Positions 6,201 through 34,400 are shown, counted from the stretch's first letter. The stretch is 64,000 bases of DNA from Laetmonice hystrix (GCA_965235115.1 OZ249436.1:5396001-5460000), one strand, 5' to 3'. A program made the numbers and translations. The notes: generated from the sequence alone by a model not told the origin.

Positions 6201-7280
6201 TTCTGTCTGCCATAGCGGGGATGACTTGGTACCAGGCCGATGGCAGGGTCGTTGTTAGTGGAGTGACCTTCACCCAAACCACGGTCCGGCCATCTTCTGT
6301 CTGCCATAGCGGGGATGACTTGGTACCAGGCCAATGGCAGGGTCGTTGTTAGTGGAGTGACCTTGACTCAAACCACGGTCATCTTCTGTCTGCCATAGCG
6401 GGGATGACTTGGTACCAGGCCAATGGCAGGGTCGTTGTTAGTGGAGTGACCTTGACTCAAACCACGGTCATCTTCTGTCTGCCATAGCGGGGATGACTTG
6501 GTACCAGGCCGATGGTAGGGTCGTTGTTAGTGGAGTGACCTTCACCCAAACCACGGTCCGGCCATCTTCTGTCTGCCATAGCGGGGATGACTTGGTACCA
6601 GGCCGATGGTAGGGTCGTTGTTAGTGGAGTGACCTTCACCCAAACCACGGTCCGGCCATCTTCTGTCTGCCATAGCGGGGATGACTTGGTACCAGGCCGA
6701 TGGCAGGGTCGTTGTTAGTGGAGTGACCTTGACTCAAACCACGGTCATCTTCTGTCTGCCATAGCGGGGATGACTTGGTACCAGGCCGATGGCAGGGTCG
6801 TTGTTAGTGGAGTGACCTTCACCCAAACCACGGTCCGGCCATCTTCTGTCTGCCATAGCGGGGATGACTTGGTACCAGGCCGATGGTAGGGTCGTTGTTA
6901 GTGGAGTGACCTTGACTCAAACCACGGTCCGGCCATCTTCTGTCTGCCATAGCGGGGATGACTTGGTACCAGGCCGATGGCAGGGTCGTTGTTAGTGGAG
7001 TGACCTTGACTCAAACCACGGTCATCTTCTGTCTGCCATAGCGGGGATGACTTGGTACCAGGCCGATGGCAGGGTCGTTGTTAGTGGAGTGACCTTGACC
7101 CAAACCACGGTCCGGCCATCTTCTGTCTGCCATAGCGGGGATGACTTGGTACCAGGCCGATGGCAGGGTCGTTGTTAGTGGAGTGACCTTCACCCAAACC
7201 ACGGTCCGGCCATCTTCTGTCTACCATAGCGGGGATGACTTGGTACCAGGCCGATGGTAGGGTCGTTGTTAGTGGAGTGA
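3294..7280. repeat. 94-bp satellite (89-bp variants), ~43 copies, with a 935-bp higher-order duplication
   Basis: Unit caaaccacggtccggccatcttctgtctgccatagcggggatgacttggtaccaggccgatggtagggtcgttgttagtggagtgaccttgacc. Variant patterns recur at +935. Confidence 0.97.
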
Positions 7281-7681
7281 GTATGTTTGGTTTAAATGAG
7301 ATTACACAACGATTTGTTCGACCCTGTTAATGTCAGAGTTAGCAGAATCTGGGACACATGTCGTAACCTACCCGGTTTTGACAGTCGATAATACAATAAC
7401 TGTTTTATACAATCTCCTGACCACCAAAACTACATACCGGCATCACAAATACATCGGTCTCTTTGAGAACGGCCACAACTTCGTAACTCAGCAGCTAACT
7501 ACGACCTGTTACATGTTAAAACAAGGGCTGGGGAAGCCCTCAGAGGTCCGTCCTCGAGTTAACAAACTCCATTCTCAGTACAAATCTCTCAATCTCTCTC
7601 ACGAACATAGCCGGCGTTTGTTGTGTTATGACCAACTTCTCACACTCACTACGCGGGTTTCCCACAAGGAGTCGGGTGGTG

Positions 7682-7822
7682 TTAGTTATTGGCCGAGTAT
7701 CTCTGTAGGAGGTAGACATGACAACTGTCACACACCCGGACGGGTTTGGCTGAGGAGGGCAGTGGCATCTTGTTATCGGAACATTCGTTACAGAATATAT
7801 CTCCACAGTTACGGCAGTGGTG
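7682..7822 (-). CDS. RUFY2: RUFY terminal coding exon 16 ([46 protein letters not shown])
   Basis: tgacag| acceptor, HHCR/CxxC/RVCxxC FYVE motifs, TAA stop. Confidence 0.96.
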
Positions 7823-10800: not shown

Positions 10801-13800
10801 GTAGAATTACAAAGATACGATCTACCTTTGAACTCTGTGTTATATATTTATAATCCTGAATGTACCTTCTATGATAAATGATATCCGAACATTTGTCATT
10901 CTGGCCGTGAAGGATCCCTGCCTCCTAACATGTCCTCCAGAGTCTCCTGAGACTTGCCAACCTGCCTCCTAACATGTCCTCCAGAGTCTCCTGAGACTTG
11001 CCAACCTGCCTCCTAACATGTCCTCCAGAGTCTCCTGAGACTTGTCTCACCTATATTGACAATATTTCCTTGTTACGGTTAATTGCGTTTGTTGGTTACT
11101 TTCAATTAACGTCTCAAATTTGCCATTCCAGCATGCACCAATATTGTGACATTTTCATATAACGATACACAAGATAGTGACATCGGAAATACCTTGTACC
11201 ATATACTGGGATTATTTACCTTTTAATATAATATACAGAACCAATTCACAACTGCAGAAACACAGGTACGGTAAATGAGATGGATATCACACACTACATG
11301 CTTTACAGGCATGACAAATTACAATAAGCAGGTTATCACAACTAGACTTTCGATGACGTCAGCCAAACGGATCACACAGTAATATTTCATCAACGTGAAG
11401 TTGACATTTTTCTTCATTTTTCCACTGCAAAGCTTGTCAGTATAATTTACTTCATGTGACTATGTGTGTCATGTGTCTGTATGTGTATGTACCTGCATTT
11501 AATCTAATGTGAATACATATAGGCTTCCTCCAAACAACTTTTATGGTATCATACTTTGCATATTCTTACACAAAAATGGTATCCGTAGGTGTGTTACCAC
11601 CATACCACTGCCCGTATCCACATTATCAACGTAAAGTAACCACTGATTCATGCAGGACATGTCACAATGTAGTCCATACGATTTTAATTAGCCGCTCATC
11701 ATTAACAGATTTCGTAATTGACCTCCATTTCACGGTTTGACCTTGCCCAGTCCGGGTGATTGTGTTGCTTGTATAGCAACCCACCCACGCACAGAGTCGG
11801 ACACATCTGTCAAAGGTCCCGTCACGGGTAAGCTAGCCCTCTGCTACGTCACCTAAAAATAGTCTCCCAATCATCTCTCTAAATCTGCTCTCGTTGGGCG
11901 GGAGGGTGTGTATATGGTTTGAAGAAGGGGACATGTCAGGTAAGATTCATGTCGAGCTCTGGCGCTGGCGTTGTGAGGACGTCTGCATACATGTCCTTAT
12001 ATCAGGACGTCCTTCATGGCACTGAGGGTCCTCTATACAACCAATCACTCCTTCATCCTCTTCTACCTCTCTGACCAGCAGGGATTACTGTGGAAACATA
12101 TGCCAACCCCAACAAATTGGTTCTCATGATAATGGTTACCCATGAATTACAGACTGCACTGGTTCATCCCATTCAGTCGTGCTGGATGACCGGGGACACT
12201 CCAACATCATATGACGGAAAGCCAGCTCGTCTAGGGGGTGGAGGGGGTGAGGGGGGTAGAGGGCGTGGAGGGGGTGGTGGGGGTGGGGGTAGAGTGTGTG
12301 TGTGTGGGGGGGGGGCTTATCGGACCGACTTTTTGTGCCCTTCCTTCCTCCAAGCATCGCATACCACATAACATTAAATCATTGATAAATATTTTATTTC
12401 TTGTTACAAAGATGGCATCATTTGACATGTTTCATGTCTGACCTTCCCCCTGGCGGCTGAAGTCTGTAAAGGACTCAAGTGTTCACTCAGAATATCCCAC
12501 CGGCCTCTCAACTATTGGGCTGAGGACCCTGTCCTCCGTCTGCAGACAAGGAGGGGGTGTGGGTGTGGGTGGGGTGGAGTAGGGTCGGGGTTGGGGGTGG
12601 GTGGAGCAGGGTCGGGAGTCCGGCCCTGAACCATCAACCGGCCGGCTTGTCCTGTGAGAGGGTCCGCTATGTCAGCAACCTCTCCACCAGACATTTCGGA
12701 GCATTCCAGTTCACAAATCTAATTATGAACTCTATAAACATGTTTGCTTGTACTTCGTACGTGTTATTTGAGTTACCCTATTCGACCTTTTAAGTGTAAA
12801 ACCATATTGATAACAGGGCCGTAAATTTGACGGGAATTTGGCCACGGCGAATGCCAAAGGCGTGAATCGTTCATGTGCCGGGGGTCTGGGAGGCCTCCTC
12901 CACCAGAAAATCTTTGCAATACAATTTTTTTGGGGTGGAAATTTAACCGAAACAGCTGCATCGGCTGCCGCAATGCAATTTCCGGCCCTGGATAAACGTA
13001 CACCCCCAGTGGATGGAATCAGAAAAACTTGTGTTTCTTACAGTAAGACTTGTGTTTCTTATAGTAGGAACAACCAATAGTTTTTTTTTTCAGCCACCGG
13101 TTGTACGTTCTGGCCTACATTAACGTCTTCCTGTTTTAGACCTATGTTAGCAAGGTGCCCCGACTGTTCCTTTACCCTGAGAAATTAACTGGGGCGTACG
13201 CCTAATATGAGAACCTTCCGAATTTTCCTTGTAATTCCCAAAAAGATTCGAGTGTATTGTATGCTTAAACGGTCAAATAAACGGTCAAATACGGTACATA
13301 CAACGTCTGAGCGTGTGGCAAACTTGGAGTCACAATATCCGACCCCATAATTAGGTAACATTTGGAACACCTCCACACAATTGTTATATAATTTGCTGGG
13401 GCTTTATGATCAAAATACCTCTGAAGGTGGGTTTCCATAGGAGTTCACGCTTCACGTGTCACGGCTCACGTTTCACGCGTGAACAGAAGAATATACAAGT
13501 CATTTTCAAAGTGCAGGTTCCATAGGCGTTCACGGTTCACTCTTCACCCTCATGTCACGAGTCACGCGTGAATGAACGCGCTTGCTCGTTTTCTCTGACG
13601 TGAAACGTCAACGTCAACTTGGTGACCTTGGTGACCTTGGTGGAAACCGTCAAGAAAGTGACCGTGAAACGTGAAAACGTGACCTCTATGGAAACCCAGC
13701 CTAAAAGTCTTCCTCCGTCACAGGCCAGTCATTCAGTGTCCTGGCGGAATATACCGACACTGTATAGACAATCACACCTGTATACATTATGAGTTAATAT

Positions 13801-16800
13801 GACTTTGGTCAGTGATACCATTTGATCATGGCGATATATGAACATCAAAGCTATCACCCGAACCCTAGGGATATGTACGACACGCCTCAGTGCCCCTCAA
13901 AGAGCCATTCAGCGTCCCACTAAAGTGGCAGCGGACTTCGCTACACCTTTAGTCTGTCAGAGTCGACTACCAGCGACACTTATAGAAAGTTTATAATTAG
14001 GTTAACTCTGCTGGGTTTGACGGCTGGGTGGCTCAGGATTCGTGTGACCGCCTCGTGACAGGGTACAGCCCAACTTTGATTTGGTCAAGACTTTCTGACT
14101 TGACCAGAAGTAGCATACAGTATGTATACCCTGTTGCAGTCACGCAAAATGTCGTGGTTCTGTGTGGCCAACGCGAATGCGGCAGGCCCTGTTCGTCAAA
14201 GTTTCTTATCATCATGTGCCGATAAAATATTTTCTGTACACTGGTTTCTTAGATACTAGTAATTCCAAAAATACTACCCTACATCAAACGCACATCGCTG
14301 TGTGATTTAGCACCATCACAGGCGTCAGAGAAATCAGAACGGTTGACACAAAGCGTCATCATATTTCAGAACCACTCAAAGATATTTGAGTCCGTTAGGT
14401 TTGTTTCCAGCAACAGTCCCATCATGTCATGGCTTTCACCTCTACAATACGCATTTAATCAGTAATACATCAACATCGACAAAATCTTGACATGTGAGAC
14501 TTTATAACGGAGTTCCTTTGGAGCTATCTGTAGTGTAGAGCAGGCACAGTTGACTCAGGCTTAACTCATTAGTACTAACAAAGGCATAATGTCCAACATC
14601 ACATATGAAGCTCTTAGTCCGGAAAGCACACACCTCCAAGTATGGCGACCTTTAGCTTGAACTTCAATCCACACAGCAAATCTCAGTTTCAAACCAAAAA
14701 TAATGAGCAAGCTGCACGACGCATGACAAATTTTCGGTGTCGGATGATACGATTCCAATATTTTCTTTGGTTAATAACAATTCTGCATTCACTGTTTGGT
14801 ATAATCGCATCCACCTAGCATCCACTTTCCGTAGACAGATGATGTCCCACTTTGCGCTCCTTCACACGGTCCAATGTGGTGCCAGCCGGGAGATGGAGAT
14901 GTTGTCAGGGCCTCAAAACGTCACCAAGGTGGCACATCACCTGTCCCGTCTACTCAACACATCTCAGGTGTCTTGTTTTGATACTCTGAAAAACGGTCAG
15001 ATAGACAAGCCGACCATAGGGACGGAACAAGGCATGGAGGAACATTCGGGACAAGTTCTGTGTGGACTGCACAGGCCAAAACATGAAACAACTGAGGTTT
15101 TTGATACGCCAAAACGTTCTGAGCAACTGAGACTTTTTCCAACTAATTTTATTATACATGGCTGGTTACATGTCCACACAGAAGATGCCCTCCCTGAGTG
15201 CCACTCTCCAGAACAATTACACCCCCGTTCTGTGTAACACCAGCAACACAAACAAAGCTTCATACTGAGTCTGTGCTGGAGGGGGTGCGTACGGTGATAA
15301 GCACAGCAGGCTGATGGGACTGAACATCTGACTGGGCTTACCTCTTGGCGTCTTTATCGGCAAGCTGTTGGCCGAGTTTGCGCGCAGTTTCTTCTGCCGC
15401 GGCTTTTTCTATGTGGCCTTGCTTAGCCCTGATCATTACAGATTTGCACATTTTGGTTGGTGGGTGCCGTGCAGCGACACATGCAAATTGGAAAAAAGAA
15501 AAAACAATGGACACAAATTAATATAAATATAGTCTAAGTCGCGTAGAGGCTTAAATCATATGGCAAATAATGAGAGCAGAGTTGGTGAAAAAGCCGCGGC
15601 AATGATGCACACCGGCCACACACAAAGCCAGTGGCTGAAGCTTAGGACTGTTGGTCTTGACAGTCCTTCTGTAAAAAAATCTTTTCCCGGAGAAAATCAA
15701 TCTAACAAAACAATGCTTAATGAAGACGACTCCAGGGCCCGGTTCACAAACAAAGCCAAGTCAATTTTAATTAACTTGAAATCCATTTTAACCAATCAGA
15801 TTCAAGTAAAATTGACTTCAAGTCAATTAAAATTGACTTGACTTTGTTTGGGAACCGGGCCCAGGAAACACTAAAATATGGATTTACCAAAATATGGATT
15901 TACCTGACTTTCTAAAAACGATTTTGACAAGGTCATACTCATAGCTTCTTTCCTTAACCTTTCTATGACATGGTCAACCATTTAAAATCGAGTGAAAAAA
16001 AGAAGAACATTTGTTAGAATGTTCTTATCGACTTCCTTCAGTATACAACCGAGAACAAATTTGGGAATGAATTAGCTTTGGTGACCATAAAGTTCAGCCA
16101 TAACTCGGTTAATCTCAAGGACTGAATGATTCCCTAAAAATTATCCTTTGATTAAAAAAAAGAAGTGGAAAGAAGGAAAATGGAAATAATACATTGTTAG
16201 AACTGTAATGATTTTCCGATAGATATATTTACTAAATGGGTTCTGCCTTGGTTCATGTCTCACCTTGACGTTAGCCCTTTGAACCCGTAACTAATTTTGA
16301 GCTATTTGGCTTAAGGTCATCCCCTCAGGGCCATGTCTCACTGCGCTCAGAATAATTTGGAAATTTGTGTTACTCTTTTAGGAATGACTTGTAGGCCATA
16401 GAGAGGTAAGCTTATGCCCCCTTTCCAATTTACGGGTTCTGGAACAATGGATTGTGACATGAGGGCCATGGGTCTGATCATATGGGCGTAGCTCGTGGTG
16501 TGACATTGGTGTTATCAGATGGGTGTAGTACCCTGTGTTGTGACATACGTGGGCCATGGGTCTGATCAGATGGGGGTAGTACCCTGTGTTGTGACATATG
16601 TAACGTGGGCCATGGGTCTGATCAGATGGGGGTAGTACCCTGTGATGTGACATACGTAACGTGGGCCATAGGTCTGATCAGATGGGGTAGTACCCTGTGT
16701 TGTGACATATGGGCCATGGGTCTGATCAGATGGGGTAGTACCCTGTGATGTGACATACGTAACGTGGGCCATAGGTCTGATCAGATGGGCGTAGTACCCT

Positions 16801-19381
16801 GTGTTGTGACATACGTGGGCCACGGGTCTGATCAGATGGGGGTAGTACCCTGTGTTGTGACATACGTAACGTGGGCCATAGGTCTGATCAGATGGGGGTA
16901 GTACCCTGTGTTGTGACATACGTGGGCCACGGGTCTGATCAGATGGGGGTAGTACCCTGTGTTGTGACATACGTAACGTGGGCCATAGGTCTGATCAGAT
17001 GGGGGTAGTACCCTGTGTTGTGACATACGTGGGCCACGGGTCTGATCACATGGGGGTAGTACCCTGTGTTGTGACATACGTGGGCCATGGGTCTGATCGG
17101 ATGGGGGTAGTACCCTGTGTTGTGACATATGGGCCATGGGTCTGATCAGATGGGCGTAGTACCCTGTGTTGTGACATACGTAACGTGGGCCATAGGTCTG
17201 ATCAGATGGGGTAGTACCCTGTGTTGTGACATATGTAACGTGGGCCATAGGTCTGATCAGATGGGGTAGTACCCTGTGTTGTGACATACGTAACGTGGGC
17301 CATAGGTCTGATCAGATGGGGTAGTACCCTGTGTTGTGACATACGTAACGTGGGCCATGGGTCTGATCAGATGGGTAGTACCCTGTGTTGTGACATATGT
17401 AACGTGGGCCATGGGTCTGATCAGATGGGGTAGTACCCTGTGTTGTGACATACGTAACGTGGGCCATAGGTCTGATCAGATGGGGTAGTACCCTGTGTTG
17501 TGAGATACGTAACGTGGGCCATGGGTCTGAACAGATGGGGTAGTACCTTGTGTTGTGACATACGTAACGTGGGCCATGGGCCGCGATCTGAACACCAGTC
17601 ACCAGCACAAACACAGCAAAGCCAACCTCAGGTACGCTTCACAACCTATGTTAGACATCGTTACAAGCTCAGCTACATGCTCAACTACTAGTAGTAATAG
17701 TTTTTGTTTAAACGCTTTGCTCCCGGGAAAGGGCGACTCCAACATATTGTCAAAAACGGAGAAGCTCTTTAGTAGATTACTAACACGGTTATGCCTAACA
17801 AGGGTTGTGAAATGTACCGACATAAAGAACACATCAAATGAACAACTTGAAAGCTCCCGTAATTCAAAACCACACTTACATCAGTTATGATTCAAATAAA
17901 GGCATAAAAAAACTTCTTAAGTCTCTAAATTAATGATATGTTAATTGGCAATTATATACCTTATTACAGAATGTTCATTGGTGGGTAGTAGTAATTACAG
18001 TGTGACCCACAGATCCATAGGCTACCGTTGATTAAGTCATTGTTAATAAGATAATAATATTGTTAAAAGGTTGACCTACTTTGCTTCCAAATCCTTGATA
18101 GTAGCTGCCATCTGATTGGTCTTCTCTTCAAGTTTTACTACCAGGTCAGTTTTATGCTTTAACGAACTTTCACAGGTCTGCAAAAAAGGGAGAGTATTAT
18201 GTGTATCGTTTTCTGTGAAATCTACAGACACTATGAGGGAAATGATGCACACCTATCATGTATGCGTGTGCACCCACGCCTGTGGGTGTGTGCGTAGGTG
18301 AGTAAAAATAAATTGGTAACAGGCATTTACGTCAACCTTTGTTGAGTGTACTTTGGTCCTTAGGGAAGACTCTAAACGAGTCCAAGATTACATCAAGCAC
18401 CTGCTTGCGACGTGAGCGTTTTCAACTTCCCATAGGGGACTCAATGAGACGGTATGGGATTGGTTGGGGCTGGGGGTGGGAGTGGGGGTGGGGTGGGGTG
18501 GGGTGGAGGTGGGGGTGGGGGTGGGGGTGGGGGTGGAGGTCGGGGTGGGGTGGGGTGGGGGTGGCGGTGGGGCAGGCGTTCAAGGGGCTCTTGCCTGAGG
18601 GAAGTGATGGCTGCCGCTGAGCGTCAGCAGCACCCACCCCAATGTCAAGTGTGGATCAATGTAAGAAACCTCTACGGACCTCTACGGACCTCTACGGACC
18701 TCTACCGTATATCTATGCTATATTATGATACACATGTATCTCCATTTTAATTGTCACCAAATTGATCCGTTCACGGTTGACTGCGGGTCCGACTGTGCGC
18801 CCCCGGGAAGTGGCGGTGGCCGAGTGGGCATGGGTGTCGATACCTTATGCTATGTGAATGGGTGCAGTAATCTTGGGGCCCGGGTTTGATTCCAGTAGAG
18901 GACTATATACAACTTTTCTCTTTCCGGACATTCACAAAGTGACTGGGTTACGCCTGATGCCCGTGCACAGTGCGGGTAGAGTCCTTCTGTCTCCCATAAT
19001 AAAAATTCCGACCCCGATCGTCGGAAACAACGTCATGTTTAATCATGAATCAAAGATGGGATCATTCTGCCGTTCCGTTGTCGTCACCACCCCGGCATTA
19101 AGATCGTCGTTACGAGTTTTCATTGGTTCAATCTTCCCACCACGTATACCAACATCTCCACAGGAGGATATCCGTCCCATTGTAATGACCAGTAATGACC
19201 AACAATAGTCTGTGTCAGTACTGGCTACTTAAGAGTGAAGGGACCTAGCTGCCACTCTGTCCGCTGCTGTTGGCTCAGCCTTTACAAGCCGGACAAGCCC
19301 GCTCTGGTCGGCACTCACAAACTTCCTAACTCTGGCCGGTACCAGATACCGACATACACACACCACTACCTCCATCAGCGC

Positions 19382-19437
<56 letters not shown>

Positions 19438-22400
19438 CCTGCAGTGACATCAGCGGCAGCGATTCCGAGGGAGTATCTTAGAGACACGCTGTCACAATAC
19501 ACTTACGACACAAGGCCAGGAGGGTCATCGGGACCGTTTAGGTGGGTTCTGTGTTATCATTTCTGCATTTTATCACTTTATTCCACCAAACAAATTCTGT
19601 TCCGATGTTTGAAGAGCTCCTCAGTTTGCGTAATCATTTCAAAAGTTGTGGAGAACTGACACAGGTAACAATTAAAAAAATCCGACATAGAGTTTGTTTT
19701 ATACCACATAAGACAGCGCCACACAATTTCCTTTCTCAGAGATTTTCATAAAGTCGGGGTTTCTTCCCACCTGAAAATGACTACATACTTCCAAAATCAC
19801 TTTAACTTTCTCTTCAATGCAGAAGCATTTTTAGGTCTAACTACCAACTTTTCCAGGTTGACAACAGCTCCTACTTCAACAAGAAATCTCCGACCCTCCC
19901 TGATTGAGACTGACCACTGTCCAGTTACTGACCACCAAACCATCGCCCAGCCATGCACATCGCCCTCAGCTGTCTGGGTCTACTCCTGGTCATTCTATTA
20001 TGTAGCTCGCAAGTCCCTGTCAGCACGGGCCAGGCATACCACTTCAGCCGGGGCTGGTCGGCCGGTAAGCGGGGCCCGGCTTTGCCTGCTCCGGTTCGTG
20101 CCCGGACTGTCCCGGCCTGGCGGCGGAGGGCGCCGTCCACGCCGTCACAGGGGCATAACCCGGCCAGGAAACACGTCGGGGAGCTACTGAACAACTACCT
20201 TGGCATGGTGAGACTGGCAGACACCTGTCACATACTACCGCAGGTACAGAGGATCATTACAGATCTAATAGAGGTCAGTTTCACTCTCACTCTTTTCTTT
20301 GCCTTTTTTTCCGCAGTTGGGGAGTGGCGGTGGCCTAGTGGGCATGGATGTCGACACCTTATGCTATGCGAATGGGTGCAGTAATCTTAGGGCCTGGGTT
20401 CGATTCCTGTAGAGGACTATACAACTTTTCTCTTTAGGGACATTGTCAAAGTAATTGGGTTACCCCTGATGCCCGTGCATTTCAAAAGAAAAATACAGAT
20501 CTAATAGAGGTCAGTTTCACTCTCACTCTTTTTTTCCGCAGTCGAAACGCAAAAATTGCACTTTGCCTGGTCCGTCAATAATACTGAAAATCAAAGTGAC
20601 ACAGATTTCATCACAATATACTCGACAAACCTGGCATGTAGCGGTATACCAAGTCTTTCTCACTCTTTAACTCTGTCATGGCCAGTGGGCAATGAATGGA
20701 AAGGGCATTAAGAACGATCAGCTTGTAGACGTATGGGTTAGCTTGAGACCCCAGGCATATACATCACGTTCTGCTGTTCCCTGTGTTGTGACATATGGGC
20801 CAGGGGTCTGATCAGATGGAGATAGTACCCTGTGTTTGAACCGGGGGCCATGGGTCTAATCAGATGGAGATAGTACCCTGTGTTTGAACCGGGGGCCATG
20901 GGTCTGATCAGATGGAGATAGTACCCTGTGTTTGAACCGGGGGCCAGGGGTCTGATCAGATGGAGATAGTACCCTGTGTTTGAACCGGGGGCCATGGGTC
21001 TAATCAGATGGAGATAGTACCCTGTGTTTGAACCGGGGGCCATGGGTCTGATCAGATGGAGATAGTACCCTGTGTTTGAACCGGGGGCCAGGGGTCTGAT
21101 CAGATGGAGATAGTACCCTGTGTTTGAACCGGGGGCCAGGGGTCTGATCAGATGGAGATAGTACCCTGTGTTGTGAACCGGGGGTCATGGGTCTGATCAG
21201 ATGGAGATAGTACCCTGTGTTGTGAACCGGGGGCCATGGGTCTGATCAGATGGAGATAGTACCCTGTGTTTGAACCGGGGGCCATGGGTCTGATCCTGGG
21301 TCTGATCACGTTCACGTTCTGCTGTTCCCTGTGTTGTGACATATGGGCCAGGGATCTGATCAGATGGGGGTAGTACCCTGTGTTTGAACCGGGGGCCATG
21401 GGTCTGATCAGATGGAGATAGTACCCTGTGTTGTGAACCGGGGGCCATGGGTCTGATCAGATGGAGATAGTACCTGTGTTTGAACCGGGGGCCATGGGTC
21501 TGATCCTGGGTCTGATCACGTTCACGTTCTGCTGTTCCAAGACATAGGCCTACAGGGTATATCGGGACAATCGGACTTATTCAAGACCATTGGAACCGGG
21601 GGGCTGTGCCCCACCCCCCTTTCACCTTTTTGACAGGAAAATGATAATGTCTCATTCTTGCTTTCTATGCGAAAGGCACCCCTTTCTCTCAGCCCCCCCC
21701 CCCCCCCCCCCAACGCGAACAGTAACATTTTCCGACATCACTTTGATATATTTGACTGATGTTTTGATTAGTGTAGGAAATTGTAGATGTGCTGCAGGAA
21801 ATTGTATATGTGGTACAGGAAATTGCAGATGAGACAAAGCCTGAAACTTTACCTTGAGAAGAGTTAATTTTCCCGTATTACTAGCTGGCTACGCGACGAT
21901 TAACACGTCAAACTGACATTGAATTTGACAATCGAGTTGTTCGTTATACTGTATTAAATGTACGCAGGACAGACAATCGGAACAAAATGACAACTACAGC
22001 AATTCAATCTTCTCTCCCTGATCCAAAAAATTGGTATTTAGAAAAAGGCAAAAGAATAAAATTAAACAATTATATGGCGGGCTTGTTTACGCCTGGCTAT
22101 GTCCCTTAAGTAATATACCAGAAGGCAGGAGGAGAGGCACCCCCCACCCCCACTCCCCATTCCCCCCACTCCCCATTCCCCCCTCAAAGACAGGCCTCCG
22201 TCAGAAGAAGAGGATTCTAGAACTAGTTAGAAATGTCCTACCTCCGCACGTTCTATCTCACTAAGCACGGCTCACGCCATGTGAAGCATCCTTTAACACT
22301 GAGACTGCGGCCGTGAGAGAGTTTTGGGTTACAATACTGCCCCCACACCTACCATCATCTACACTGAATGCTGACAGCACATTGTCGATAAACCTCACAT

Positions 22401-25400
22401 TGTTGTTTTTAGTTTTTATTTTGGTCAGAGAGCTTTGAAACCTTAGCCTGGAGTCTTGATAGAGAGGAGCGAATATTTAGATAGGATCTACTGAACGTAT
22501 CGACCACCACTCGGTAAAATGATTGAAGATTTTGGTACGACGGCCGGAAACTGGACTGTACGACTGTAGACTCTGGTGGATTTATTATGTTTCCTCCGTA
22601 TCCCACGCCTGGGATAGGTAAATTCTGAGACAGAGAAGTTTATATATATCTAACAATAGCAGCAATTATTTTTATTTAAACTTTTAGTGTTGGTCTAGTA
22701 TAGTTCTAATTAATATAGCATTAATGCAAAATTAAGCGTTAACAAGGGCATTTAATAAGATATGAAGAACCCTGTGTGAAATTAAGATAAGATATTTTAC
22801 ATTCAAGTTGCTCATTACATGGATTTTAACCATGTTTTCGCACTCTCACTCACGCATTTCATGACGACTCATTAGATCTGACCTAGTTTCTGGCATTAAC
22901 AAAGAGACAGCCACCTCGTAACGTGGGGAAATCACAACTGACCAATTCTCTGATCGCTAAAACAATGTGGCCGCTACGTGGGGGGGCGCTTTTCTTTTTC
23001 TTTTTTAATTTTTTTTATATTACTACGTGGTCCGTAAGGAGGCAAGTAGCCAGGATTTCTACTTGTTTTGTTTCTGCTCATGATGGAAGTCCCAGCCCTT
23101 GGGAACAAGCGCAGCTGAGCTTGCCGCAAGTCTGGGAGCATGCTTCTCCAGTTACATTGTGAAAATTAGACTTGTCTATCATACATCCTCTATAAAGTAG
23201 ACCTAGTCTAACTAGAATATTGGAGATCTTTGAAGGTTGTTTTGTCCGACACGTAGCTGGTTACATCACTGGCATTCTATGGTCCCATTCTTCGTCATGT
23301 TGCAGTTGATAATAGATATTATATATCTGTGCGATACTGTCATTCTGAAAGGTCATGTACTGAAAATGCCATTTACATGTACCTCCCATATTAATTAATG
23401 CCTGTGCTGCGTCTCCGCCCCCTCACTATCCTCTGCCCTTCATGTCGCTATCATCATGGCAGTCCAGATAACTTTCACCCGATTTATTATCTCATTCATC
23501 GTGTAACAGATGACAGATGTTATGAAAGTCGATAAAAGTTCCAATCCTAGAACTCGGCCTTTAAATCTGTCGGGATTCCGAGTGAACTTGGCCTTTAAAT
23601 CTGTCCTGATTCCGAGTCAGAGGTTCAGAGACTGCGATATACTTTATGACCCTGAACGAGGAGCAGGCGGTTTGGCCAGGCCGCCGCAGCAGTATAATAA
23701 TTTTCTTCGTTTATCTAATCAACCCGATTGGTTGTCAATCCACGTGTTGTTTGCCTAACTACCAGGTGATGTAACTGAACACACACCAGGTGGTGCTTCC
23801 ATCGATATGACCAATGAGCTTAGCGTTAATACTGCCTGAACGTGTCATCTACTACCTGGAGGGGATCCCGTATTGAGAGTATAGCTCTACTACCCACTCC
23901 ACCCACCACACACGCCTCACCGTCAATGTCGGCAATTTGCGACAGTGTTGAACATTCAAACTCTACCAATCATATAGAGTCTCGACTTTCTGCCTCCCCA
24001 CCTGTAAATTCCTCAGTTAGGCTGGGGTTTCAAAAGTAATACTACCCGATCGTAGAGGTGGCTTCGTTCAACCAAGAATAATCCAGAAGTTATGAGATGT
24101 AAAATTTTGCACAGAGGCTATGCGGCCCTCAAATGCATGATGCTGCTTCCCTACTTTCGTCGCAGAATACTTGATGTTGAGTGTGACCCTAGGAGGCCCT
24201 CTGAACGGTTAAGATTTGGAACTTGATGTGGTAATTGCCGCCCTTAGGGGATACGGGCCTCCACTGCCTCCACCATGATAACGTCACTGATCCACTGCCT
24301 CCACCATAACGTCACTGATCCACTGCCTCCACCATGATAACGTCACTGATCCACTGTCTCCACCATAACGTTACTGATCCACTGCCTCCACCATGATAAC
24401 TTTACTGATCCACTGCCTCCACCATAACGTCACTGATCCACTGCCTCCACCATGATAACGTCACTGATCCACTGTCTCCACCATAACGTTACTGATCCAC
24501 TGCCTCCACCATGATAACATTATTGATCCACTGCCTCCACCATGATAACGTCACTGATCCATTGCCTCCACCATGATAACGTCACTGATCCACTGCCTCC
24601 ACCATGATAACGTTATTGATCCACTGCCTCCACCATGATAACGTTACTGATCCAATGCCTCCACCATGATAACGTCACTGATCCATTGCCTCCACCATGA
24701 TAACGTTATTGATCCACTGCCTCCACCATGATAACGTCACTGATCCACTGCCTCCACCATGATAACGTTACTGATCCAATGCCTCCACCATGATAACGTC
24801 ACTGATCCACTGCCTCCACCATGATAACGTTACTGACCCACTGCCTCCACCATAATAGCGTTATTGATCCACTGCCTCCACCATAATAGCGTTATTGATC
24901 CACTGCCTCCACCATGATAACGTCACTGATCCACTGTCTCCACCATGATAACGTCACTGATCCACTGCCTCCACCATGATAACGTTACTGATCCACTGCC
25001 TCCACCATGATAACGTTACTGATCCACTGCCTCCACCATGATAACGTCACTGATCCACTGCCTCCACCATAACGTTACTGATCCACTGTCTCCACCATGA
25101 TAACGTTACTGATCCACTGCCTCCACCATGATAACGTTACTAATCCACTGCCTCCACCATGATAACGTCACTGATCCACTGCCTCCACCATGATAACGTT
25201 ACTGATCCACTGCCTCCACCATGATAACGTCACTGATCCACTGCCTCCACCATAACGTTACTGATCCACTGCCTCCACCATGATAATGTCACTGATCCAC
25301 TGCCTCCACCATGATAACGTCACTAATCCACTGCCTCCACCATAATAACGTTACTGATCCACTGCCTCCACCATGATATCGTTATTGATCCACTGCCTCC

Positions 25401-28400
25401 ACCATGATAACGTTACTAATCCACTGCCTCCACCATAACGTTACTGATCCACTGCCTCCACCATGATAGCGTTATTGATCCACTGCCTCCACCATTACAC
25501 TCCACAGCTGGAGCTCCTGAGGCTTCGGTCATGCCTGAGTGAACGAGCCACGGTCGCTGACAAACCCATCCTCCAACAAATTCAGCCCCTGGTGAGTAAA
25601 CACTTTCACAACTATAAAAAAGTTCTTTTTATTTATTTTTCTGTTTTTTAAAGTTTATGCATCTTTTGCAGTCTTAGCACTCGAAGACAATTCAGACATT
25701 GTCATTGTTTCCTATCATAGGCAATCAGGTATTCTTTCAAGGAAACAGAGGTTGGAGATGTACTATTTGAACGCTATTGAAAACATGATAGTCGACGCCT
25801 GGTGTTTATAACCCATGTACCCACCGTATGCCAAATCTGACGCCCACTTTACAATGCGTCATCTTCACTTACGTCACAAACGAAAAAATCATCAATTTTC
25901 TAATGGAAATGGCGGCTTTGCTTTTTTGCAACCAACTCCCTATCATCATTATTATCATTATCATCATCATCTGGCAACCACTACTGTTCCCCTGTCCTTC
26001 TCAGAGGACATGGAACAAACCGATGCACTTGAAACACAAACGTTGGGTATTTATAGTCAGGGTTATCGACTGCCGATACACACTTGCCACGCCCCGCCAT
26101 TATGCAAATGAGCCTGGTTATGCATGCACTTAAAATCAATCTAAATGCTGGTGACCACCAATTTAGCTGGGACAAAATGGTCTCCAAAAAGGCATTCATC
26201 TTATTTCTTACGATATTTTTAGACTGCAAACAACAATTATTATCTCTCTCTTGTTGGAACTTGTAATCCCGGGCATGTATAATCCTCATCATTTTCTTCA
26301 ACCCGACTGGAAAGGCATTAATAATTGAGAAGGAAGTATCCAAGATGAAGGATTAATCTCTGAACAACTTTGTATTGAAACCATAGCCTTGACCTACAGA
26401 AAATTCCACTACATCGAAAACACATCAAACTAAGCTGGAATTTCGTAATTACAAGGAAATAACAGCTCCATCTCCCACGCTGTTATCAAGTTTCAAGTTC
26501 TGGGGAATGGGGAAACACCGCTAGAAACAACTCAACAACCCACTGCTATATGGTCTGTCACGTGACGTTTCTTACCAGAAAAACACCTCAAGAACACCTC
26601 CGTTCTGTCGTCGTCTATGCGATTCTTTCTCCTTCGATTTAATATATCTCCTGATATACCAGTTAGCACACACATCGTAGTTGAAATAAAGATCTTACCA
26701 CCAATGATAGCCAAATGGAGGGTGGAGTCCCTGTCTTCAAATATGTAAATTGTGTCCCTGGTCGTTCTGCAATTAAGCTCTTCAGCTCCAGCGACCAGGG
26801 GGGATGTCTACATTGTTTGTAACAACCACGCCAGGCGTCGATTGTGTGTGACGTCAGGGAAGCCATGTTGTTGCCATTTAGTCGAAGTGACGAGGGCTGA
26901 GGCAGACTAACTCGGACTATTCAAACACATGAGTAAAGTCGAACCTCTAACCACCCTGGGGGTCAGCTCTGACCGCCTCGAACTCTACGAATTCTGCCTG
27001 CTGTATGTGATGAAAACGTATACGTTACTTGTACAGATACACACGGTTGTTTTATTCTCTGGTGCTTGGCGGTATGGCCTGGGTTTGTTCTCATAATGTT
27101 ACACAGACAGTAAAATAACAATGAGGCGGGTAACTGGCGGCGAAATGCCGGGCGGCCTACGTGAATGTGCCGACGTTTCGCCGTTGGTGGTGTTTCGAGG
27201 TTTGATGTCGCTGAGTCGCTGTCAAGAAGTGAGTGATTACTGCAGAGATCTAGTAGGACCATGATCTTTTTTGCTCTTTTTTTTAAATTACAAATCCTCG
27301 TGAATCTATACAATAGGTATCTGCATTTACATTGAGCTATGACATCAAGAAGCCAACAGAGCGACTTATTGTAATGACAAATGTATTTTAAGAATATAAG
27401 TATGTTCAGAAGTTGTATCTAGGCAGGAAAAATCCAGACATACACTTTACCGAGGTAATATATAAACATGTGTAATAAGAGAATATAATAGTATCGAAAA
27501 TAGTGGTCTTGGCATGTCGTATTCTCTAAAATAACATAACAGAGAAAAGTGCCTTATCCACTAAGCCGATTTTCCTTGCGACGTCCATGCGATTTTGACA
27601 TTAGCCTTTTATTTTACTGTTATTTTGAGATTAAAGGATGGAACCCATATCCTTAAAGAGGAAAGGCCAGCCAGGAAAAATTTCAGCATGAAATTCCACC
27701 ATTAAATCAAAAACCGCATGGCCGTCGCAAGGGAAATCGGCTTAGTGGATTATTTTCTCTCACAGTTTCTTATATTAAGTAACAATATTTCTATTAAATA
27801 GCCAAGAGATTCTAGCATAAAATGTCGTCATGATCGGTCAGTATGATTGGTATTCGGTATTTATATGGATCATCCTTGCCATCTAATATCGACTTTTTCA
27901 ATTATTTCCACAGCACCGACACCCTCACAGAGATGAAGACGAGATCTGATACGTGATGGCAGGGGCAGACATCAGGATTCACAAAGTCACCCTCCTCAGG
28001 AAGGTCATCGCGACAAACAACCGGATACTATACAGACCCAACCCACACACATACACCCCGAGCAAGGGGAGTTGATGTGGATATCACTGGAAGTGATTGA
28101 CAGAAAATCGTTTTCTAGACAGTTCCTTCCACCAACACCGCCATCCAACACCAAGCTCATCCCACTTCACGCACTGCTACTATTCGCTCATTCTACAGAT
28201 CTGAACATGTCAAACTACATTTGATTCGTCTTCAGCGTCCCCCGAAAATAGTGGTTCGTGTGAGAAGACCTAGTTTTAACACTCAGCACCGACGACCAGT
28301 CAAACTGACTGCTAAACTATTTGAAGAACTTTTAGTTCTACCCTAGGAACCAGATTTAGCCTTATTGCTGGTCCATGCTTAATCAACTCGGACGTTGCTA

Positions 28401-31400
28401 TGTCGTTTCATAGTGTCCCAGTCGATAATAGGGAATCATGCCCCAGTCCTGGTACAGCGAATACGACATGCCAAGACCACTCACTTGATTTACCAATCCA
28501 CAGCGAAAACTTTACTGTGCTAGCTTGGCTTGATTCCGTATTTAGATGTTCCAACAAATATTTGATTTTCACGCCGGTTCTATTTCATGATCAGCCAGGC
28601 TCCTTAAGCGAATTCTATAAACGTTAAGAACGAGCTTCTGATTGGTCAATCCTTAGCGTACATGTGACCTATCAGAGGGTTTGTTACGGAGCCACGCGTG
28701 CATTATTCTGTAAGACGACAATGGCCTGTGATATAAAGTTCATTCATTTGTAAAATTACATGTTTGAGCCTTTATTCCCCACTGTGCTATTTCCAATTAA
28801 AGACAGCAACGTAGTCTTCTCAGCCTTACTGACTACAATCCATTCAACTTTAATTACTTACCCTCACTAAAAGATCAATATCATTAAACAATCTGCATAC
28901 TGTGATGAAGATGTCTTCACTTTTCTGTTTAAAATCATACTGAGCCTCAAAGGCATTTCGATTTTAAAAACCGCGAGCGAGTGGACTGCTGGATAAATAG
29001 GGGCATTCCTCCAAAACCATAACGTTTTCCCTCCAGGGGCCAGTTGCATGACCGTTCGTTAATTTCCCCATGTAGGCCTATTTTCAATGAGAATTTTAAC
29101 GAACGGGCAGTCATGCAACTGGCCCCAGGTAACCTTTCTATGTATTTTGGAAATCATTTTGAGAGATACCAAAAATTGCGAAAGAAAAGAGAGCAGATGG
29201 AAGACATCTCTGCCTGGACCGTGCAAGTTATTTTGATATTTGGATATCAAGTATAGCAGATGGAAGATATAGAACTGCAAAGTTCTTCAGTGTTGTCATT
29301 TAAAGACTTTCTCAGCAAATTTATTTCCCTTTTTTTACAGCTTGATATCATTTCAATAAAATAAATATTCTTTATAAATTTTCATTTATTACCATTACGA
29401 CAATGCTAAAAAGGTGGCGAAAAGTTGGCGTAAATGAATTATTTGGCTTGCACTAGAGGCGAGTCCCCTCCTGGCGGCAGTGAGTTCTCTTTGCTCAACC
29501 AGCCAGAAAACATGCTCCCGTTTGCCACGAGCCCTAAATGCCGTGAGGGGCCGGCACCCACCGCTTATAGTACCGAGCTGCTAAATCCGGCTACTATCTA
29601 TAAATCATGGTCAGATCAATGGCTGTGTCAATTTATAGCATCCTGCAACTGTTAGGGATTGACGCCATACCGGGAAGACGGACCCACGTCAGGCCGGCAC
29701 TGGTATCCGCCAGGGAAGTCCTTGGCCGGCTGGCAGAAGTCCTCTACATATTGTCTCCAACAACAATAGCACAAACTCCTGTGGATGGGCTGACGGCGTC
29801 TGACAGGTGATAACCGATAATAAGATACCAGGTAGCGCTCTGTTTATTTCACAGAGCGACATTTATATATTCTTTCACTTGTCTCAAATTGTGTATGGTT
29901 TTCTTCTAAAAGGATGAACTATAAAAGTAGATGTGAGGTTCTTGCCGTAGATATCCAACAACAATCGTTGACACTTTATGAAAACTGCTTCAGGTCAGCC
30001 AGTATATGAGGGGAGGAAAAGCTAAAATGGAGACAGGAAAAGGATGAACTTCACTGAGACCAGGAAGATATGGTCACTTGAGATGTATAAATTGTTGCGA
30101 AGGTATCCAGCAATGGTTGTCTGTGTATTCGGCAAGGACTTCCCGCCAAGGATTGCACCTGCCTGGAAGAAGGCGTAGGTGTGAAGACGTCATTGTCCTC
30201 ATCCATTATTAACTAGGACAGTTTGTCGTGTCAATCAGTGACGTCCTCAGATGTCCGTTATTGTAGTTCCTGCTGCTGGTCCTGCTGTGCCTCCGACGGT
30301 GGACCGTCAAACGTTAATTATTTCTACCCTCTCCACTACGTCAGTACTCAGAACACCACCGGATTGTAATGTCAGAGATAAAGATTGTAATGTCAGAGAT
30401 AAAGATGGTAATGTCAGAGATAAAGATTGTAATGTCAGAGATAAAGATTGTAATCTCACAGATAAAGATTGTAATCTCACAGATAAATATTGTAATCTCA
30501 CAGATAAAGATTGTAATCTCACAGATAAAGATTGTAATGTCAGAGATAAAGATTGTAATGTCAGAGATAAAGATTGTAATGTCAAGATTGTAATCTCACA
30601 GATAAAGATTGTAATCTAACAGATAAAGATTGTATTCTCACAGATAAAGATTGTAATGTCAGAGATAAAGATTGTAATGTCAGAGATAAAGATTGTAATG
30701 TCAGAGATAAAGATTGTAATGTCAGAGATAAAGATTGTAATGTCAGAGATAAAGATTGTAATGTCAGAGATAAATATTGTAATCTCACAGATAAAGATTG
30801 TAATCTCACAGATAAATATTGTAATCTCACAGATAAAGATTGTAATCTCACAAATAAAGATTGTAATCTCACAGATAACGATTGTACCCCCGGTAATCTC
30901 ACAGATAAAGATTGTAATCTCACAGATAAAGATTGAAATCTCACAGATAAATATTGTAATCTCACAGATAAAGATTGTAATCTCACAAATAAAGATTGTA
31001 ATCTCACAGATATAGGTTGTAATCTCACAGATAAAGATTGTAATCTCACAGATACAGATTGTAATCTCACAGATAAAGATTGTAATCTCACAGATAAAGA
31101 TTTTAATCTCACAAATAAAGATTGTAATCTCACAGATAAAGATTGTAATCTCACAGATAAAGATTGTAATCTCACAGATAAAGATTGTAATCTAACAGAT
31201 AAAGATTGTATTCTCACATATAAAGATTGTAATGTCAGAGATAAAGATTGTAATGTCACAGATAAAGATTGTAATGTCAGAGATAAAGATTGTAATCTCA
31301 CAGATAAAGATTGTAATCTCACAGATAAATATTGTAATCTCACAGATAAAGATTGTAACAGCGCGAATCCACCAAGACATTTAGTCTTGCGACGTCCATG

Positions 31401-34400
31401 TTTTGATTTTACTCTTTTTTTTCACTGTGACTATGTTTTTAAAGTATGATACCCATGTCGAGAATAATGGCAGCACACATTCTGTTTTGAAAATTTTAAT
31501 ATGCAACAATCGCTAATCAAATGGGAAATTGATTAGCAATTTCTAATATTGTGTATATTAACTTGATTATGGTACAATACTTTTATTTGAGATGCTGAGT
31601 GAATGAAGCTGTACAGTGGGTGTAGCCAGGTAGCTGATGGGGGGTGGAGGTGGGGGGGGGGGGGTGGAGGGAAGATTGTGAGCAGGTTTGTACAGTTTTA
31701 CCAAAGGTTGTGAGCAGGTTTGTACAGTTTTACCAAAGGTTGTGAGCAGGTTCGTACTGTTTTACCAAAGGTTGTGAGCAGGTTTGTACTGTTTTACCAA
31801 AGGTTGTGAGCAGGTTTGTACAGTTTTACCAAAGGTTATGACCAGGTTTGTACTGTTTTACCAAAGGTTGTCAGCAAGTTTGTACTGTTTTACCAAAGGT
31901 TGTGAGCAAGTTTGTACTGTTTTACCAAAGGTTGTGAGCAGGTTTGTACTGTTTTACCAAAGGTTGGAGAGCAGGTTTGTACTGTTTTACCAAAGGTTGT
32001 GAGCAGGTTTGTACTGTTTTACCAAAGGTTGTGAGCAGGTTGTTTTACCAAAGGTTGTGAGCAGGTTTGTACTGTTTTACCAAAGGTTATGAGCAGGTTT
32101 GTACTGTTTTACCAAAGGTTGTGAGCAGGTTTGTACTGTTTTACCAAAGGTTGTGAGCAGGTTCGTACAGTTTTACCAAAGGTTGTGAGCAGGTTGTTTT
32201 ACCAAAGGTTGTGAGCAGGTTTGTACTGTTTTACCAAAGGTTGTGAGCAGGTTTGTACAGTTTTACCAAAGGTTGTGAGCAGGTTTGTACTGTTTTACCA
32301 AAGGTTGTGAGCAGGTTGTTTTACCAAAGGTTGTGAGCAGGTTTGTACTGTTTTACCAAAGGTTGTGAGCAGGTTTGTACTGTTTTACCAAAGGTTGTGA
32401 GCAGGTTTGTACTGTTTTACCAAAGGTTGTGAGCAGGTTTGTACACTTTCCACTTCCAGAGTCACTCACTTACCTGAAGTTTGTTGTACATTTCAAGATT
32501 AATTCCCTTGATGTCATCCAGCTGTTTGCGCAGTGCGATGATGCTGTCTTGTTTTTCATGGATGTCCTTCTCAAGTAGCCTCTGTGCCATCTCGTTCTCT
32601 TGTTTCATGGATATCTGCAGCTGTAGTTCGTTCTCTACATCCTGAAACATTCAGAGATTCATTGCGATTTAATTCTGATTTCTGGCCTGAACATAGTGGT
32701 AACACAGCATGCATTGGGCCCACTCGACCACCTCATGTTTTCACTCTTGCCAACATTTCGGAAAGACAATGAAGAAAAGGTTCACAAAATTTTAACGAAT
32801 ACAATATCACAATACTGTTAACATCTGTTATAAAAGTACATTCTATTCTGACAAATTTATGATATACGTGTAGGGACAATCATTTATGACATTGTCAATT
32901 TCCCATCAGGCAGGATCACTTGGTGCTGCCACCTGGCGGAAGGACATAACGCCGTCCCGTCGGTATCACTTGCACCTGGCTTTAATTGACACCACCTCTG
33001 TCCTATTCTTGACGGTCTATTTTTACGGCATCACCCTTTACTGGTGAGGAATGGCTCTGAGTAGTTCCCTCTTAATAGTAATTTATCATTACCAGTCTCA
33101 TCTGCGTTTCTTCCTGTAACTTTTTCTGTACATCCACCAACATCGTGTCAAGACCTGTGCGCGATGATTGATATGTCTCACGTTCTGTGTCAATATCTTC
33201 ACGTGCACTCTGACAGGAGAAGCAAGAAAAACTGGCTACAAATTCTGACATGTCAAGGTGCTACCTCATAGCTGGCTTCACATCAAACTGCTGTCTGTCA
33301 TAATCTGTAGCAAATAGTCTTCGGGATGTATTATGATAAAGGCATACTAACTAAAATAAAAAAGTATCAGATCTCTATGAAGTCGATGCTTGGTTTGAAC
33401 TTTAAATTGTTGGCTGGCCAGAAAACATTGAGCACCTCTCCTCTTGAAACAGGAACAATAATTCAAGTCCGTAGGATGAAAACAGCTGATTGAAAAAAAC
33501 CTAATCAATCAGCATTTCTATTCTTGTCAGTCAACTTTACCATGTTTCCTAGTAACTTTCCCATTACCTCAATCTACAGTATCTCTACAACTAAAATATT
33601 TAAAAAAAAATCACAGAAAAACATTATCAAAATGAACAAGAATAAAACAAAAATTAGAAAATTCAAAAAAAGACCAACTAAAGCTACTAAAGCTTTCATT
33701 ACTAATTTTTAAAGGAATAACCATGAAATAAAAAATAAGAAATAATCATGGCAATTATATAAAAGCATGACAGAGCCGTATATAGCAGAAAAAAGTGATG
33801 ATGTATGTACAAATCCAGGAACAGAAGGCCAGTATTTCAGAAATCTCAAAAGGAAAACAGCAGTTAACTGGCCTCCGCTTAGTTAGTCGTGCCTGCATAC
33901 AGCCCTGCATGAATTCATATAAAATAAACAATCCTCTGGCTGATTTGTATAAATAAAAGATGGTTCTCTTTGCAAACACACAAAAATGGACATCTAGAAA
34001 CAAAATCTAGAACTGCATGCCTGCCTATCTATGAATACTTCCGAACCTTCTGTTTGGCACGGACTCCTCCCAGCGCCACCTTGTGAGCCTGGAAGGAAAC
34101 CTCTCCCATAATGACCACATCAAAATGTCACTGCTGCATTTGTTTTTCAATTTCTGATTTAATAAGAGCACCATATAATTCCAAAACAGTTCAAGGACCG
34201 ACCCAGTGGGTTGCCAAGCCTCTCAAAACGCCTCTCTTCTCACCCCAGACCGACAAGAAGTGCCGGTACCTTCACAAGCCCCTCTGGAGTATTCCCTTCG
34301 CTGGTGCTGCTACCTGGTGGTTGACAATGTAACTAACCTGGCAGTTTACGTGAGCCAGACGATACCCGTAATACCACTCCTTACTTTCTCATCATTCCTT

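Follow-up and report, generated by a model that had tools for sequence, protein, structure and literature searches.

A corazonin-type preprohormone gene on the opposite strand within RUFY intron 10 of Laetmonice hystrix

The stretch of DNA analyzed here, hereafter the window, comprises 64,000 nucleotides (nt) of the Laetmonice hystrix genome (GCA_965235115.1 OZ249436.1:5396001-5460000), with positions counted from its first letter. On its plus strand lies what is very probably a genuine single-copy preprohormone gene of the corazonin type, whose coding sequence (CDS) falls wholly within intron 10 of a RUFY1/2 orthologue on the minus strand. An initial reading of the window from its sequence alone (the sequence-only reading) had described a multi-exon preprohormone at this place, and both its coordinates and its description proved right: three plus-strand coding segments (19953-20273, 25508-25591, and 27914-27949) join into a CDS of 441 nt that is open throughout (146 codons plus stop), the two introns are of the GT..AG type, and stops lie in frame 5′ of the ATG at 19953. 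The parts listed in that reading, namely a signal peptide, a Gln-first 11-residue peptide, a GKR site, and an associated peptide with two Cys residues, were all found in the translation.

The precursor begins with a predicted signal peptide of 26 residues (19953..20030, plus strand), identified by its h-region (mean Kyte-Doolittle value, 3.03), by the small residues at −3 and −1, and by comparison with aligned sequences, all 14 of which have G, S, or A directly ahead of Q. The predicted mature peptide of 11 residues (20031..20063) comes next; in its pyroglutamate (pGlu)/amide form, it has a computed monoisotopic M of 1290.589. It is followed by GKR (20064..20072), which combines the amidation-donor Gly with a dibasic cleavage site. 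The remainder of exon 1 (20073..20273) consists of a variable, Pro/Arg-rich spacer with RRR and RK sites and then a conserved 16-residue C-x15 block, and the exon ends ...DLIE at the phase-0 donor GAG/gtcagt at 20273. Exon 2 (25508..25591; 28 residues), between the acceptor ccacag/CTG and the donor CTG/gtgagt, begins LELLRLRSC... and contributes the second Cys of the associated peptide. A proposed exon 3 (27914..27949), placed from sequence only behind the acceptor ttccacag/CAC, codes for 11 residues and then the stop TGA; the first ATTAAA 3′ of this stop is at 28796. Upstream of the ATG, the first coding exon is likewise proposed, from the nucleotide sequence, to have an untranslated 5′ portion (19857..19952, plus strand), position 19857 standing just after an acceptor-like ...cttttccag. 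An additional upstream noncoding exon is plausible because in Platynereis crz1 the first coding exon, which holds the peptide as it does in the window, is exon 2 (PMC6969523).

The peptide exon occurs once in this genome and has many relatives elsewhere. A back-translated QAYHFSxGW motif has a single occurrence in the 627-Mb assembly (reversed control, 0), and the exon-1 protein has only one match in the genome. A word-based search returned one relative, P0001, which has QAYHFSKGWSAGKR, shows 54% identity across exon 1, and matches the window exactly in the 11 residues that end exon 1. A profile of these two sequences, run with HMMER over 1.84 billion proteins (E ≤ 0.001), gave 14 matches, 11 of which are single-copy open reading frames (ORFs) of the same architecture: a leader, QAY[HQ]FS-x-GW-xx-G(R)KR, a variable spacer, the C-x15 block, and then V. 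The other three are P0125, the gastropod hypothetical protein P0133, which carries QNYHYSNGWHPGKR, and the repeat protein P0134, whose match is confined to the Cys block. The V that follows the C-x15 block in 13/13 relatives corresponds to a GT donor read through, and the position of the intron after exon 1 is therefore conserved. We rejected the reading of the gene as a retrocopy, since this conserved intron of the family is retained. In an alignment of the window with 13 relatives (A2, 14 sequences), residues Q27, A28, Y29, F31, S32, G34, W35, G38, and C92 are invariant in 14/14 and P96 is nearly so. All 13 A2 relatives and 25/25 metagenome loci have G(R)KR or GKKR after the peptide. These loci were confirmed in a metagenome scan with the 14-sequence alignment, and every one of them carries SP-QAYHFS[KN]GWxxG(R)KR; an earlier scan with the two-sequence profile had given 337 pattern matches, of which none was confirmed. 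The single genomic occurrence of the motif, the empty control, and the many relatives of the same plan indicate that the corazonin gene is more than a chance ORF.

Two features of the relatives stand apart from this plan. In P0125 (466 amino acids; ENA contig of 2,504 bp), some nine xYH[YF]SNGWxxGKR units stand in tandem ahead of the C-x15 block, which makes it a multicopy corazonin/GnRH-like precursor in a family that is otherwise normally single-copy. Among loci L003 to L026, some members of the QAYHFSKGWMP group have an intron after exon 1 that opens with GTTCGT and some have one that opens with GCTCGT; of the 20 loci scored in all, the donor after the C-x15 block is GT in 11 and GC in 9, which suggests GC-AG introns or weak donors at the conserved exon-1 intron position.

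Membership in the corazonin/GnRH superfamily, as first proposed from the sequence, was borne out by the peptide pattern, the two-Cys peptide, and the relatives. The window peptide has the pattern Q-x-[FY]-x-[FY]-S-x-G-W-x-x (11 to 12 residues) followed by Gly and a dibasic site. It also has the corazonin-type layout, in which the Gln-first peptide immediately follows the signal peptide (h-region, −3/−1 residues, and 14/14 aligned sequences) and the associated peptide has two Cys residues, here the C-x15 block that ends the peptide exon and a second Cys in the next exon. Annelid genes of the corazonin type are well described (PMC6969523, PMC8557429, PMC5592718), and the former lophotrochozoan GnRH-1/2 peptides are now named corazonin-1/2 (PMC8557429). 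By its predicted product, we assign the gene to lophotrochozoan corazonin (formerly "GnRH"), with Platynereis CRZ1/GnRHL1 and Capitella Ca-GnRH as its nearest counterparts. The Platynereis dumerilii precursor, like that of the window, has QAYHFS-x-GW-xx-GKR directly after the signal peptide (PMC6969523, PMC8557429), a 16-residue C...LI block that closes the peptide exon, and a next exon that reads x-E-x-x-R-L-x-x-(x)-C; the crz1 target site of the transcription activator-like effector nucleases (TALEN) encodes SQAYHFSNGW (PMC6969523). The two differ at residue 7 (R in the window, N in Platynereis CRZ1), at residues 10 and 11 (SA versus MP), and in the second Cys, which lies 9 residues into exon 2 in the window and 10 in Platynereis. 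Ca-GnRH of Capitella teleta, pQAYHFSHGWFPa (PMC5592718 Table 1), shares 8/11 residues with the window peptide (QAYHFS-GW) and the same precursor layout (PMC5592718, PMC8557429) but has H7, FP, and GRKR where the window has R7, SA, and GKR. Arthropod [Arg7]-corazonin, pQTFQYSRGWTN-amide (PMC5592718), is identical at 5/11 positions (Q1, S6, R7, G8, and W9) and has aromatic residues at 3 and 5 in common with the window; in both cases the peptide has 11 residues, comes first after the signal peptide, and bears pGlu and an amide, which in the window are expected. The 11-residue string of the window had no match in the literature searched, which generally did not extend to supplements, and the peptide is apparently an unpublished variant of a known family.

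Processing of the precursor would follow established prohormone biochemistry. Signal peptidase would cut after Gly26 and a prohormone convertase after KR, carboxypeptidase would trim K and R, PAM would use the Gly for C-terminal amidation, and the Gln at the N terminus would cyclize, yielding a pGlu...amide 11-mer. The mature peptide would be released from a few neurosecretory cells and act on a G protein-coupled receptor of the corazonin-receptor type. In Platynereis, CRZ1 activates CrzR and goes up with feeding, maturity, and lunar phase, and in crz1 knockouts maturation comes later and growth and regeneration are reduced (PMC6969523). By analogy, the Laetmonice peptide might tune maturation, growth, and energy balance.

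The host gene was mapped by tblastn with ten RUFY proteins (named or unnamed), which placed 16 coding exons of a RUFY1/2-type gene on the minus strand (7691..43394). From the 5′ end of the gene, exons 1 to 9 lie at 43394-43257, 39368-39198, 38911-~38759, 38151-38050, 37018-36893, 35773-35705, 35443-35375, 35096-34908, and 33206-33093. Exon 10 (32641-32474; 56 residues) is 71 to 81% identical to the RUFY2-like proteins of Tubulanus, Lineus, and Crassostrea virginica, and exon 11 (18177-18079; 33 residues) shows 60 to 71% identity; in hidden Markov model (HMM) controls these two exons gave E values of 1.4e-35 and 4.6e-22, respectively. The donor of exon 11 is probably AA/gtaggt at 18080/18079. 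Exons 12 to 16 follow at 15430-15341, 9931-9806, 9498-9370, 8223-8098, and 7837-7691. All 16 are collinear on the proteins P0232, P0171, and P0163, and the host is 66 to 75% identical to RUFY proteins across 362 to 713 aligned residues.

The domain content of the minus-strand exons agrees with this map. Pfam RUN was found on three exons (for example, 38759-38917 at 22.3 bits and 36836-37093 at 30 bits; cut-off, 22), and a RUN exon matched the RUN domain of RUFY3 in PDB at an E value of 1.1e-12. Coiled-coil exons are present among the minus-strand RUFY ORFs. The FYVE finger is divided between two exons, the first half alone reaching 20.5 bits (cut-off, 27.8), and the terminal exon, which reads ..HHCRNCG.., shows 76 to 88% identity with the C-terminal FYVE parts of named RUFY2-like proteins. 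Among longer proteins, the RUN-exon search retrieved named "RUN and FYVE domain-containing protein 2-like" entries of molluscs, nemerteans, and annelids. The RUFY2-like proteins of Lineus longissimus, Tubulanus polymorphus, and Crassostrea virginica have the same order of RUN, long coiled coil, and C-terminal FYVE, and the first exon, with its 17-residue motif, is common to the window and to named RUFY2-like proteins; we noted no structural difference. By these exon-level comparisons, the host is an ordinary RUFY1/2 orthologue. It seems to have alternative first coding exons on the minus strand, one at 43257-43394, as in Tubulanus, Aplysia, and Crassostrea, and one at 49091-49390, which resembles the N termini of Lineus, Patella, and Paralvinella proteins.

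Intron 10 of the host (18178..32473, minus strand; 14,296 nt) is the longest mapped intron of the gene. Its donor reads ...AAACTTCAG/gtaagt at 32474/32473 and its acceptor ttttgcag/ACCTGT at 18178/18177, with GT..AG borders and phase 0 at both. These splice borders, together with the tblastn exon map, reproduce exactly the host intron named in the sequence-only reading, and the plus-strand CDS (19953-27949) lies wholly inside it on the opposite strand, as that reading had placed it. Apart from the corazonin-type gene, 35 ORFs of at least 70 amino acids in intron 10 gave nothing over the Pfam gathering cut-off; three sub-threshold matches among them (E, 0.008 to 0.0095) are at the level of chance.

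About 4.3 kb, or ~30%, of intron 10 is minisatellite, in four arrays: 48 bp x 10 to 14 at 20797-21505, 31 bp x 40 at 24260-25495, 21 bp x 47 at 30362-31358, and 32 bp x 25 at 31672-32444. One of these arrays stops ~30 nt from the donor of RUFY exon 10. A tRNA-like short interspersed element (SINE) lies directly after the exon-1 donor (20297..20493, plus strand), with a second copy of 89% identity at 18805-18967; its word depth of ~6e5 marks it as a very abundant element. It carries motifs that we take to be A- and B-box-like, GGCCTAGTGG and GGTTCGATTCC. ARAGORN predicted no tRNA in 18000-33000, and the head of the SINE is thus not a callable tRNA. The element is flanked by a 39-nt duplication (20258-20296 = 20494-20532), in which the final 16 nt of exon 1 recur together with the donor, the second donor being at 20509/20510.

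Three sequencing runs (X1 to X3), all from one sample, carry the exon, and we judged them to be DNA because their contigs cover introns at even depth. They were compared with the reference over 19600-28400. An X3 contig joins 20257 to 20494 and so represents an allele without the 236 bp in the same sample; the reference therefore carries an insertion that is polymorphic within one sample. Over 19600-20287, the three runs have no difference from the reference, and the introns carry dozens. The invariance of exon 1 fits constraint and may instead reflect haplotype identity.

The placement of exon 2 draws on relatives and on published precursors. Five metagenome loci (L011, L013, L016, L017, and L023) have a conserved block 0.8 to 1.9 kb 3′ of exon 1 that starts after an AG and reads EGFxRLAEDCE (the EGFxRLAEDC exon). 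In transcript-derived precursors, the 16-residue block is followed by AEMDRLQLLC in Platynereis GnRH-1, IEARRMAVEC in Capitella, DELSRRHRMC in Tubulanus, and EEAARIQRTC in Aplysia, so that the precursors share the pattern x-E-x-x-R-[LRM]-x-x-x-C after C-x15 (PMC8557429 supplement). The LELLRLRSC of the window fits x-E-x-x-R-L-x-x-C, one residue short. When all AGs in 20300-32400 were screened for phase 0, a pyrimidine tract, and a start like [RK]L..C, 25508 alone passed; the filter was composed after the precursor sequences had been seen, and the screen is therefore a weak control only.

Several observations weigh against a corazonin-type gene with this three-exon structure. Neither Pfam family of the peptide class reached its gathering threshold: PF17308 (Pro-corazonin), which we take to be built mainly on arthropod sequences, scored 14.8 bits against a gathering value of 25 (E, 0.038), and Adipokinetic hormone scored 12.3 against 22.9 bits. 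A search of the whole genome with the Pfam Corazonin family gave no match, and the search controls likewise matched nowhere. The spacing between the two Cys residues is 23 in the window versus 24 in published precursors, and the minisatellite of 31 bp x 40 stops 12 nt short of the exon 2 acceptor. In runs X1 and X2, the final six codons of exon 2 contain three variants (25575, 25587, and 25590), all of them nonsynonymous with codons read by eye. Splice signals are the sole basis for exon 3, with nothing comparable from relatives. The SINE and the duplicated donor beside exon 1 could disturb splicing, the peptide-coding part being spared, and the three runs that carry the exon include no RNA.

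Some of these points would be accommodated by a real gene with a wrong 3′ model, in which the transcript ends in or just after exon 2, or uses another last exon, and the gene has two coding exons. Beyond its donor, exon 2 can be read on in frame for another 19 codons, to a stop at 25649-25651, the tails of published precursors after the second Cys vary widely (PMC8557429 supplement), and the three variants near the 3′ border of exon 2 suggest that this part is under weak constraint; the 11 residues of exon 3, as said, lack homology support. We nevertheless consider such a 3′ end rather unlikely, given the consensus-like donor CTG/gtgagt, the good in-frame acceptor ttccacag/CAC, and the distance of ~1 kb to the nearest AATAAA after exon 2 (26685). 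That the feature is a silent or decaying copy whose frame is still open is very improbable. For a pseudogene speak the matching runs, which are all DNA, and the repeats that adjoin both the exon-1 donor of the reference allele (the SINE) and the exon 2 acceptor (the minisatellite). Yet this is the sole copy in 627 Mb, its frame and all of its splice sites are intact, every invariant residue of the family is retained, exon 1 is free of variants in the three runs, and a SINE-free allele exists in the same sample. A genuine corazonin-type gene within RUFY intron 10 accordingly remains the reading that we prefer.

The nesting itself was seen in the window alone, and whether it is conserved was approached through contig sizes, gene models, and metagenome loci. 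A corazonin-type ORF with QAYHFSNGWQPGKKR (P0132), 31% identical to window exon 1, comes from an ENA contig of 769,723 bp. Of 134 short ORFs with the RUFY RUN exon, one, P0091, is on an ENA contig of precisely this size. Equal six-digit sizes are very unlikely by chance, and in a distant species corazonin and RUFY are therefore probably linked, no more than 770 kb apart; with linkage indicated in one such species, the nesting may be old. Among corazonin relatives on contigs of >100 kb, 1/6 matches a RUFY-exon ORF contig in size; for the other five (P0001, P0129, P0136, P0257, and P0133), no RUFY-exon ORF was found on a contig of matching size, a result that is uninformative either way. The three annelid RUFY models fetched, P0159 (Capitella), P0197 (Ridgeia), and P0140 (Paralvinella), all end in ...KLQ/KLK, which is the exon 10 border. 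They are without the FYVE half, and the break in them seems to fall at the same intron in which corazonin lies in the window, as a long or gene-bearing intron could cause.

RUFY exons were found in 0/25 of the corazonin loci, a test of low power on contigs of 1 to 8.3 kb. Against these loci, tblastn of 12 window ORF pieces gave a best E value of 0.044, on the opposite strand of the corazonin exon itself, and tblastn of the ten RUFY proteins a best E value of 0.22, with all alignments spurious-looking on inspection. HMMs of RUFY exons 10 and 11 against 3,286 ORFs of the loci reached best E values of 2.1 and 2.4, and 37 long flank ORFs returned nothing from Pfam at E ≤ 0.001. Seven loci extend 2.1 to 4.3 kb 5′ of the peptide, and in the window exon 11 lies 1.85 kb upstream; no locus extends 12.4 kb downstream, where RUFY exon 10 of the window lies. 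Searches of the literature found no work linking corazonin with RUFY and, for GnRH with RUFY, nothing relevant by title among the matches listed; the string "synten" is absent from the available portions of PMC6969523 and PMC8557429.

The suggestion, also made from the sequence alone, that the arrangement is conserved microsynteny thus stands in part: the same-size contigs of P0132 and P0091 and the three annelid models that end at this intron speak for it, and the metagenome loci, at low power, speak against it. We regard it as doubtful that the nesting is an ancient, selectively maintained pair across annelids or more widely, held together by a shared cis-regulatory landscape or by antisense coupling in neurosecretory cells. 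Such a pair would suit the matching contigs, the Capitella, Ridgeia, and Paralvinella models, and the fact that the host intron is the longest of the RUFY gene in the window. An equal contig size, however, shows linkage within ≤770 kb at best and neither nesting nor orientation, gene models may be truncated for many other reasons, and the loci without RUFY exons include the seven with 2.1 to 4.3 kb of upstream sequence. Antisense genes nested in introns are, moreover, common in animal genomes. A more specific version, in which the pair is ancient across annelids and perhaps other lophotrochozoans and is kept by neurosecretory enhancers in the body of RUFY, appears distinctly unlikely. The idea that the nested gene is coupled to RUFY transcription or splicing, or that the two interfere with each other, also raised in the sequence-only reading, is supported by no result and is purely conjectural. 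Most likely the nesting is a structural arrangement of a common type, in which a gene lies on the opposite strand within an intron of its host, and nothing demonstrates that it is functionally tied to RUFY. As a bolder extension, human RUFY1 and RUFY2 lie at 5q35 and 10q21, on arms presumably paralogous to the GNRH1 and GNRH2 regions; if so, and on these map positions only, a linkage of RUFY with the GnRH superfamily would go back as far as the ancestor of bilaterians.

Given how well this family is already studied in annelid maturation, growth, and energy balance, the locus itself adds just one more peptide variant, and its only potentially new point, a mildly new one, is the possibly conserved nesting of corazonin in RUFY. 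For annotation, a gene of ~440 coding nt in three exons on the opposite strand of a repeat-rich 14-kb intron is easily missed, and a nested corazonin gene may in turn break models of its host; the three annelid RUFY models do end at this intron. If the arrangement is conserved across phyla, it could serve as a positional marker that separates corazonin-type from GnRH/AKH-type (adipokinetic hormone) genes, confused in naming, and as a handle on the location of neurosecretory enhancers.

Outside the two genes, the window contains two minus-strand tandem tracts with long repetitive ORFs in several frames, one at 3177-7326 with a unit of ~94 nt over ~4 kb and one of ~2 kb at 51902-53811. Both look like satellites, not genes.

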